From: Escherichia coli
GTDB taxonomy: Bacteria > Pseudomonadota > Gammaproteobacteria > Enterobacterales > Enterobacteriaceae
Assembly: GCF_044647545.1 (NCBI RefSeq)
Contig: NZ_CP172818.1
Length of the DNA: 64,000 nucleotides
Strand: one strand, 5' to 3'
The notes below the pieces were generated by a model that was not told the origin of the DNA, did no database searches, and worked only from the letters and a program-made list of their open reading frames with translations. The position numbers and the translations under genes are program-made. Shown here piece after piece: positions 13,675-15,405 of this stretch (the stretch's first letter is position 1; the number at the start of each line of letters is the position of its first letter).

Positions 13675-14568
13675 ATGAATGGAAAATTGCAAAGTTCGGA
13701 TGTAAAAAACGAAACTCCGTACAATATTCCCTTATTGATTAACGAAAATGTGATCTCCAGCGGAATTTCTCTGATCTCGCTCTGGCATACCTACGCCGAC
13801 GAGCATTACCGGGTGATCTGGCCGCGGGACAAGAAGAAACCGCTTATCGCCAACTCATGGGTTGCGGTGTATACCGTACAAGGATGTGGGAAAATTATTT
13901 TAAAGAATGGCGAACAAATAACTCTGCATGGCAACTGTATTATATTTTTAAAGCCAATGGATATTCACTCTTATCACTGTGAAGGTTTAGTCTGGGAACA
14001 GTACTGGATGGAATTTACCCCCACCAGTATGATGGATATTCCCGTTGGTCAGCAAAGCGTTATTTATAATGGCGAAGTTTATAATCAGGAACTCACCGAA
14101 GTTGCTGAGTTAATTACTTCACCAGAAGCAATAAAAAATAATCTGGCAGTCGCTTTTCTGACGAAAATTATTTATCAGTGGATTTGTCTTATGCACGCAG
14201 TCGGTAAAAAAGATCCACAACGGCGGCAAATTGAAAAATTAATTGCCACTTTACATGCCAGTCTACAACAACGCTGGAGCGTAGCTGATATGGCTGCCAC
14301 GATCCCCTGTAGCGAGGCCTGGTTGCGTCGTCTGTTTTTACGCTATACCGGCAAGACGCCGAAAGAATATTACCTCGATGCGCGTCTGGATCTGGCGCTA
14401 TCGCTATTAAAGCAACAAGGGAACTCGGTTGGCGAAGTCGCTGATACGCTCAACTTCTTCGACTCCTTTCATTTCAGCAAAGCCTTTAAAAATAAATTTG
14501 GTTATGCGCCGTCAGCCGTGCTGAAGAATACGGACCAGCACCCCACGGATGCCAGTCCACACAATTAA
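13675..14568 (+). CDS. yidL: AraC/XylS-family transcriptional regulator YidL
   Basis: 297 aa from ATG at 13675 preceded by GGAGGG; C-terminal AraC-type HTH (...[16 protein letters not shown]...). Confidence 0.85.
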
Positions 14569-15405
14569 CGTAACTCTGGCCAGTACGCTTTGTTGGCCTC
14601 CAGCAACTCATCCAGAATAGCTTTGGCGACCGAGGCGCTCGGTACCGTTTTCGACAACGTAATCGCCTGCCACAGGTGCTGATATGAACGCTGTTCCCAG
14701 GCGTCCACGACCAGTTTTTCCACCGTCACTTGCTGACTCATTAACCCTTTCTGAAACTGCGGGATATCGCCGACCACCATTTCCCACAAAAAACAAAAAA
14801 AAAAAGTGGTTCAGGCCGTAGTAGCGCACGCGCATCTGTTTGCGATCTTGCAGCCCAACAATTTGCGCCATCCGGCTTTCAATACCGATTGGCATGTCAC
14901 AGATGTTGAGGATTTTCGCATTCGGGCGCAGACGACGCGTGGCTTCTGCGACAATGGCTGCCGGGTTGGAGTAGTTGAGCATCCAGGCATTTGGTGAATA
15001 TTTTTCCATATAATCCACCAGTTCCAGGACGCCGCCAATGGAACGCATGCCGTACGCTATTCCGCCGGGTCCGCAAGTTTCCTGACCAACAACGCCGTGG
15101 CGCAGCGGGATTTTTTCATCCAGTTCGCGCATCGGGTATTTGCCGACGCGGATGTGCGCCATGACAAAATCAACGTCGCTGAATGCCACTTCAGGATCGG
15201 TGGTGTAACTAAACGCAATGTCCGGCGCTTTTTCTTTAAGGATGACTTTACAGGCTTCGGCAATCACTTCCTGCCGCGCACCATCGTTATCATAAAATTT
15301 CAGTGCACGAAGCGGGAAACGGTCCTGATTCGCCAGGAGCATCAACACGATGCCTGGCGTAAAGGTGCTTCCACCGCCTGCGACAACCACTGAGAATTTG
15401 GTCAT
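14565..15405 (-). pseudogene. glvG: Family-4 6-phospho-glucosidase GlvG, disrupted (frameshift plus apparent internal deletion at a homopolymer)
   Basis: N-terminal 197 codons ([20 protein letters not shown]...YYGLNH) run into an A/T homopolymer at about 14786-14805; the C-terminal about 70 codons (…[27 protein letters not shown]...) are in another frame; total far shorter than a roughly 440-aa GH4 enzyme. Confidence 0.8.

Follow-up and report, generated by a model that had tools for sequence, protein, structure and literature searches.

An A-rich junction in an Escherichia coli glvG pseudogene is probably an assembly artefact over a known deletion polymorphism

Introduction

The intact Escherichia coli glvG allele, represented here by that of strain FDAARGOS_497 (WP_022646301.1), is 1323 nt long and encodes a protein of 440 residues annotated as a 6-phospho-alpha-glucosidase. 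Over residues 1-439 it aligns end to end with two GH4 enzymes of this kind whose structures are solved, AglB from K. pneumoniae (PDB 6DUX; E=5e-275) and GlvA from B. subtilis (PDB 1U8X; E=7e-225). The corresponding K-12 locus, b4556 (NC_000913.3 3861173-3861987), annotated as a pseudogene in RefSeq, has lost 508 nt between two 8-bp direct repeats (GAACCACT). Both repeat copies are present in the intact allele (...CTGAACCACTTTGG... and ...CAGAACCACTGGTGG...) and one is kept in K-12, an arrangement that identifies the K-12 loss, at the level of sequence, as a classic repeat-mediated deletion. In K-12 the adjacent glvBC gene is also split into glvC and glvB by a stop codon (Q369*), and the glv operon of this strain thus contains at least two inactivating lesions.

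The deletion is widespread. The glvG locus was found in 5415 of 5426 complete E. coli genomes and the central 508 nt in 1653 of the 5426, and a 50-mer spanning the clean K-12 junction matched over its full length in ~3137 of them (~58%). This last figure adds 2606 matches at ≥99% identity to 531 at 95-99%; 1097 weaker matches were left out as partial alignments to intact genes, judging from those listed. This polymorphism, in which most E. coli have lost the 508 nt and about 30% keep an intact GH4 6-phospho-alpha-glucosidase gene, is already annotated publicly, and a literature search on glvG returned almost exclusively unrelated papers.

The window studied here, meaning the whole 64-kb stretch of DNA that was analysed, is a piece of E. 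coli chromosome (uhpT...ilvBN...yidJKL-glvG-glvBC-yidP...dnaA...bgl...pst) collinear with positions 3,847,885-3,910,779 of K-12 MG1655. Its glvG has the breakpoints of the K-12 deletion with a short A-rich segment placed between them. In the following, we compare this junction with known alleles and with the rest of the window, and argue that it is probably an assembly artefact over the known polymorphism and not a feature of a living genome.

Results

Structure of glvG in the window

The window gene was compared with K-12 b4556 (815 nt) and the intact FDAARGOS_497 allele in a three-way alignment, which delimited two native parts separated by 26 nt (Table 1). The 5′ part is identical to K-12 and to the intact allele at 600 of 600 nucleotides, and codons 1-200 and 371-440 are both identical to those of WP_022646301.1. 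With respect to the 1323-nt allele, the window lacks 508 nt, corresponding to codons 201-369 and one additional base; in NZ_CP033850.1 this segment lies at 1403530-1404037. Because the net loss amounts to 482 nt, which is not a multiple of three, the C-terminal part lies in a different frame from the N-terminal part. The gene consequently reads as 200 native codons followed by 65 out-of-frame codons, with no single ORF of ~440 residues.

Pfam searches revealed a complete Glyco_hydro_4 domain (PF02056) in the N-terminal ORF (E=9e-67, residues 6-184, profile positions 2-182 of 183). The Glyco_hydro_4C domain (PF11975), covered from position 1 to 211 by the intact allele, is represented in the window only by profile positions 166-211 of 211, in a separate ORF of 74 residues. 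Unlike intact GH4 6-phospho-alpha-glucosidases, the window glvG is thus missing residues 201-369 and frameshifted in the rest. Since the missing residues include most of Glyco_hydro_4C and the remainder is out of frame, no functional GH4 enzyme would be made from the gene as given. An earlier note on this DNA, made from its letters, had described a GH4 6-phospho-alpha-glucosidase gene with about 170 codons gone from its middle and a change of frame across an A/T-rich junction, a description that alignment and Pfam both bear out. It had counted 197 N-terminal codons followed by a homopolymer of about 20 nt; the feature stands, with the numbers corrected to 200 codons and a composite filler of 26 nt.

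Comparison with the K-12 deletion

Aligning the locus to reference glvG and to intact GH4 homologues, as the same note had suggested, gave the K-12 endpoints plus 26 nt, with 508 nt missing. K-12 and window glvG share their genomic position between yidL and glvB/C, and the deletion endpoints lie at the two GAACCACT repeats, the same on the left and on the right. The K-12 junction is clean (...CTGAACCAC joined directly to TGGTGGTC..., 815 nt in total), whereas that of the window holds 26 additional A/T-rich nucleotides, for a total of 841 nt. Outside these, the 600-nt 5′ parts are identical and the 215-nt 3′ parts differ by one SNP, located 54 nt from the junction, where the window and ST648-type genomes have A and K-12 has G. 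The possibility that K-12 glvG contains the identical junction, which would have made the pseudogene a native one, did not hold: the endpoints agree and the filler is absent. The window junction with its filler was found in none of the 5426 complete E. coli genomes, and exact junction searches returned no match in GTDB species-representative genomes or in JGI metagenome contigs.

The 26-nt filler

The filler reads TTTCCCACAAAAAACAAAAAAAAAAA on the plus strand and TTTTTTTTTTTGTTTTTTGTGGGAAA on the gene strand. It is a composite and not one homopolymer, consisting on the plus strand of TTTCCCAC followed by A6, C and A11. The A11 run is the sole homopolymer of at least 11 nt in the 64-kb window outside the 2924-4737 tract described below.

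Descent of the filler from the missing segment, as a degraded copy of the 508 nt, was unsupported. Local-alignment shuffle tests gave p = 0.98 against the raw segment, p = 0.43 after removal of G from it, and p = 0.19 against its first 80 nt with G removed. Alignment under an error model derived from the island tract gave p = 0.28 for the whole filler and p = 0.17 for its first 16 nt. The 8-mer TTTCCCAC does correspond to nt 16-26 of the intact segment after G removal (background 0.9%, p ~0.01), a match that was found post hoc and is not counted as evidence.

Lineage of the surrounding DNA

ST648-like strains match most of the window at 99.85-100% identity. The best 40 genomes over 24.7 kb, all of ST648 type and including RS571, FDAARGOS_497, ECONIH1 and MS6198, matched at 99.7-99.8% identity. 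Each of these 40 matches spans 25245 nt for a query of 24763 nt, that is 482 nt more, which shows that all of these relatives have an intact glvG. The DNA flanking the filler is identical to FDAARGOS_497 over 4492 nt on the left and 9207 nt on the right. An imported or ancient deletion allele, which should have left SNPs beside it, is not indicated, as these 13.7 kb contain none.

The neighbouring glvBC gene is of ST648 type as well, and the Q369* stop of K-12 is absent from it. Given the intact best 40 genomes and this glvBC, the K-12-type glvG allele is probably not that of the lineage of the sequenced strain. The link to the K-12 pseudogene drawn by the earlier note was therefore right as to the breakpoints, which are exactly those of b4556, and its suggestion that the pseudogene may be native to this strain is unlikely.

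The uhpA-ilvN island tract

A second anomalous tract lies about 10 kb away, between uhpA and ilvN, where ST648-type genomes carry an island that is absent from K-12. The real island (NZ_CP033850.1 1390225-1392424) is AT-rich and has genes for two hypothetical proteins, one of them frameshifted. In the window, from position 2924 on, almost only G's are lost at first and non-A bases are later turned into A, and the A content climbs from 29% to 80%. The reference sequence of 3084 nt is thereby represented by 1588 nt (about 3.3 kb collapsed to about 1.8 kb overall). At 4738 the sequence resets abruptly, and the following 220 nt, in ilvN, contain 8 substitutions unique to the window. The encoded IlvN has Q64* and four other changes, although no residue differs between the IlvN proteins of K-12 and ST648.

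The relation of the tract to the ST648 island is clear only in its left ~800 nt. The tract is not a pure subsequence of the island, as the longest common subsequence of 1406 nt is to be read against ~1318 nt in shuffles. Judged by its composition and its course, the segment 2924-4960 is plainly non-biological sequence.

On the plus strand the glvG filler resembles this tract in miniature, with mixed bases, A6, C, A11 and an abrupt reset. The glvG flanks are free of spill-over errors, unlike those of the large tract, and the collapse ratios are very different (508 to 26 nt in glvG; 3084 to 1588 nt for the island, counted on the core left unaligned by blastn). The reading of the junction as an artefact draws on the shared strand and composition signature. 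The suspicion that glvG and the tract at 3140-4737 share one artefact has become the best-supported part of the earlier note, with the same A-rich plus-strand signature and with errors at structural-variant sites.

Chimerism with K-12

The window was compared site by site with K-12 MG1655 and with an ST648-type reference. It agrees with the ST648 type against K-12 at 1488 sites, the reverse being true at only 26, of which 24 fall in one patch of the dgo region. This patch (24010-28828) shows 45 substitutions with respect to FDAARGOS_497 and no indels, 24 of them K-12-like and 21 unique; natural recombination or a genuine difference between strains may account for it.

Between the ends of yieH and phoU, the window matches K-12 MG1655 without a mismatch over 9440 nt, while no other identical run exceeds 1192 nt. 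This block takes the place of a different island of 7.4 kb found in ST648-type genomes. On either side, the switch between ST648-type and K-12 sequence occurs within 3-5 nt of the structural-variant boundary. Natural recombination as the source of the block was ruled out, as the switches lie so close to these edges and the flanks, only ~86% identical to K-12, offer no homology for a natural crossover. The combined arrangement of ST648-type backbone and K-12 block was not found in any complete genome, the best matches being K-12 laboratory strains at 99.4%. The window is thus an ST648-like (phylogroup-F-type) E. coli backbone combined with K-12 sequence. From the exact structural boundaries and the unmatched arrangement it follows that the K-12 sequence entered the record in silico, as template or gap-filler, or through mixed DNA.

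Distribution of errors

All indels and junk with respect to the ST648-type reference are confined to five sites of structural variation between K-12 and ST648 (Table 1), with none in the other ~60 kb. Compared with all close relatives, the segment that replaces yidI has lost GTA and has gained one A and two A's in short A runs; these are probably small errors of the same origin. Between yidB and gyrB, where K-12 has a 136-nt REP-containing segment, the nine-nucleotide loss leaves the GGGCGGAGATGATCTCCGCCC hairpin downstream of yidB, a likely terminator, with a shortened right arm. The TT loss between pstB and pstA lies 12 nt from the site of an extra 84-nt REP segment in K-12.

Table 1. Coordinates of the features of the window discussed in the text
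Feature	Position	Strand	Description	Basis
glvG locus	14565-15405	minus	841 nt; ATG 15405-15403, stop 14567-14565	
glvG native codons 1-200	14806-15405	minus	NAD-binding GH4 N-terminal domain, ending RVRYYGLNH	alignment and Pfam
Retained direct-repeat copy	14806-14812	minus	GAACCAC(T), flanking the 508-nt segment in intact alleles	alignment
glvG filler	14780-14805	not assigned	26 nt, judged junk; plus strand rich in A; placed precisely at the K-12-type deletion junction	
glvG native 3′ end	14565-14779	minus	last 2 nt of codon 370, then codons 371-440 and stop (14565-14777)	alignment
glvBC	15405-17021	minus	PTS EIICB, intact 538 aa, identical to the ST648-type protein	sequence comparison
Companion artefact	2924-4960	plus	ST648-type uhpA-ilvN island decaying to poly-A	reference comparison
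K-12 MG1655-identical block	50747-60186	plus	yieH end, cbrBC, yieKL, bglHBFG, phoU end	100% identity
Error site 1	2904-4737		uhpA-ilvN island, absent from K-12	
Error site 2	10255-10302		48-nt segment replacing yidI in ST648-type genomes; errors at 10255-10290	
Error site 3	14780-14805		glvG junction	
Error site 4	30981 (30975-31011)		REP region, yidB-gyrB; nine nt lost relative to ST648 type	
Error site 5	61773		REP site, pstB-pstA; TT lost relative to both K-12 and ST648 type	

Discussion

The K-12 endpoints, the uniqueness of the filler, the chimerism and the confinement of errors to sites where K-12 and ST648 differ in structure are direct observations. We consider that the glvG pseudogene with its homopolymer junction is most probably an assembly artefact over a known polymorphism. 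As the window holds a 9.4-kb block of pure K-12 sequence, a template or contaminant best explains how a K-12 junction came to stand in glvG. K-12 sequence would have entered the assembly of an ST648-like strain as a template or gap-filler, or as K-12 DNA in the sample. To judge from its close relatives, the sequenced strain most probably carries the intact 1323-nt glvG, and the conflict of this allele with the K-12 deletion allele would have been met at the assembly or consensus step. We infer, with a probability of about 0.8 for this reading as a whole, that this conflict led to the K-12 breakpoints being kept and 26 nt of A-rich junk being placed where 508 nt belong. The same process would have produced the poly-A decay in the uhpA-ilvN island and left K-12 sequence unaltered between yieH and phoU. 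Contigs patched with a reference, or a mixed-strain long-read consensus, may be the cause. Simple mapping of short reads to K-12, with a consensus called from them, is an unlikely one, as the window remains perfectly of ST648 type as far as the structural-variant boundaries, including stretches in which K-12 diverges by 14% and has many indels.

The strain could instead carry the K-12-type 508-nt deletion natively, the filler alone being sequencing or assembly junk. The breakpoints are exactly of K-12 type, most E. coli carry the deletion allele, and the 8-bp direct repeats that flank the segment make its recurrence or acquisition possible. We nevertheless regard this as unlikely, since the best 40 genomes are all intact, the 13.7 kb around the gene are without SNPs, glvBC is intact, and junk occurs in the window only where strain and K-12 differ in structure; a strain that was like K-12 at glvG would present no conflict from which junk could be generated. 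A real deletion in the ST648-like strain, independent of K-12 and mediated by the repeats, with capture of a 26-nt filler that is T-rich on the gene strand, would take the sequence as it is given, and both the error-free flanks and the direct repeats, which favour slippage deletions, speak for it. When slippage removes DNA between direct repeats no filler stays behind, however, and this filler is absent from the 5426 genomes, matches in strand and composition an unquestionable artefact 10 kb away, and lies in a window demonstrably chimeric with K-12, all of which makes such an event very improbable. Were it true, the junction would be evidence for recurrence of the deletion and for its capacity to capture untemplated DNA. 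Finally, a homopolymer inside a coding region may recall a contingency tract, through which glvG would be switched by slipped-strand mispairing (phase variation). This is scarcely credible here, because changing the length of the tract would bring back neither the 508 missing nt, with their 169 codons, nor the Glyco_hydro_4C domain, and no other E. coli genome has a tract at this position of glvG.

The relevance of the locus is one of quality control only: the record mixes in K-12 sequence and is not to be trusted at sites of structural variation. The segments 2904-4960, 10255-10302, 14780-14805, ~30981-31011, 50747-60186 and ~61773 should not be mined for biology, and the record would give wrong calls of gene content or pseudogenes for glvG, ilvN, the bgl operon and the uhpA-ilvN island. 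Throughout the source assembly, K-12 sequence and junk are probably to be found at every structural difference between the strain and K-12.

The progressive decay of the island, with loss of G followed by poly-A, does not correspond to the output of any program that we could name. The window nonetheless shares the features of artefacts from reference-templated or mixed-strain assemblies, such as carry-over of the reference and insertions that failed to be reconstructed, in which a block 100% identical to the reference stands at a structural variant, errors occur only where sample and template differ in structure, and low-complexity junk takes the place of real sequence and breaks conserved genes, as ilvN is broken here by Q64*.
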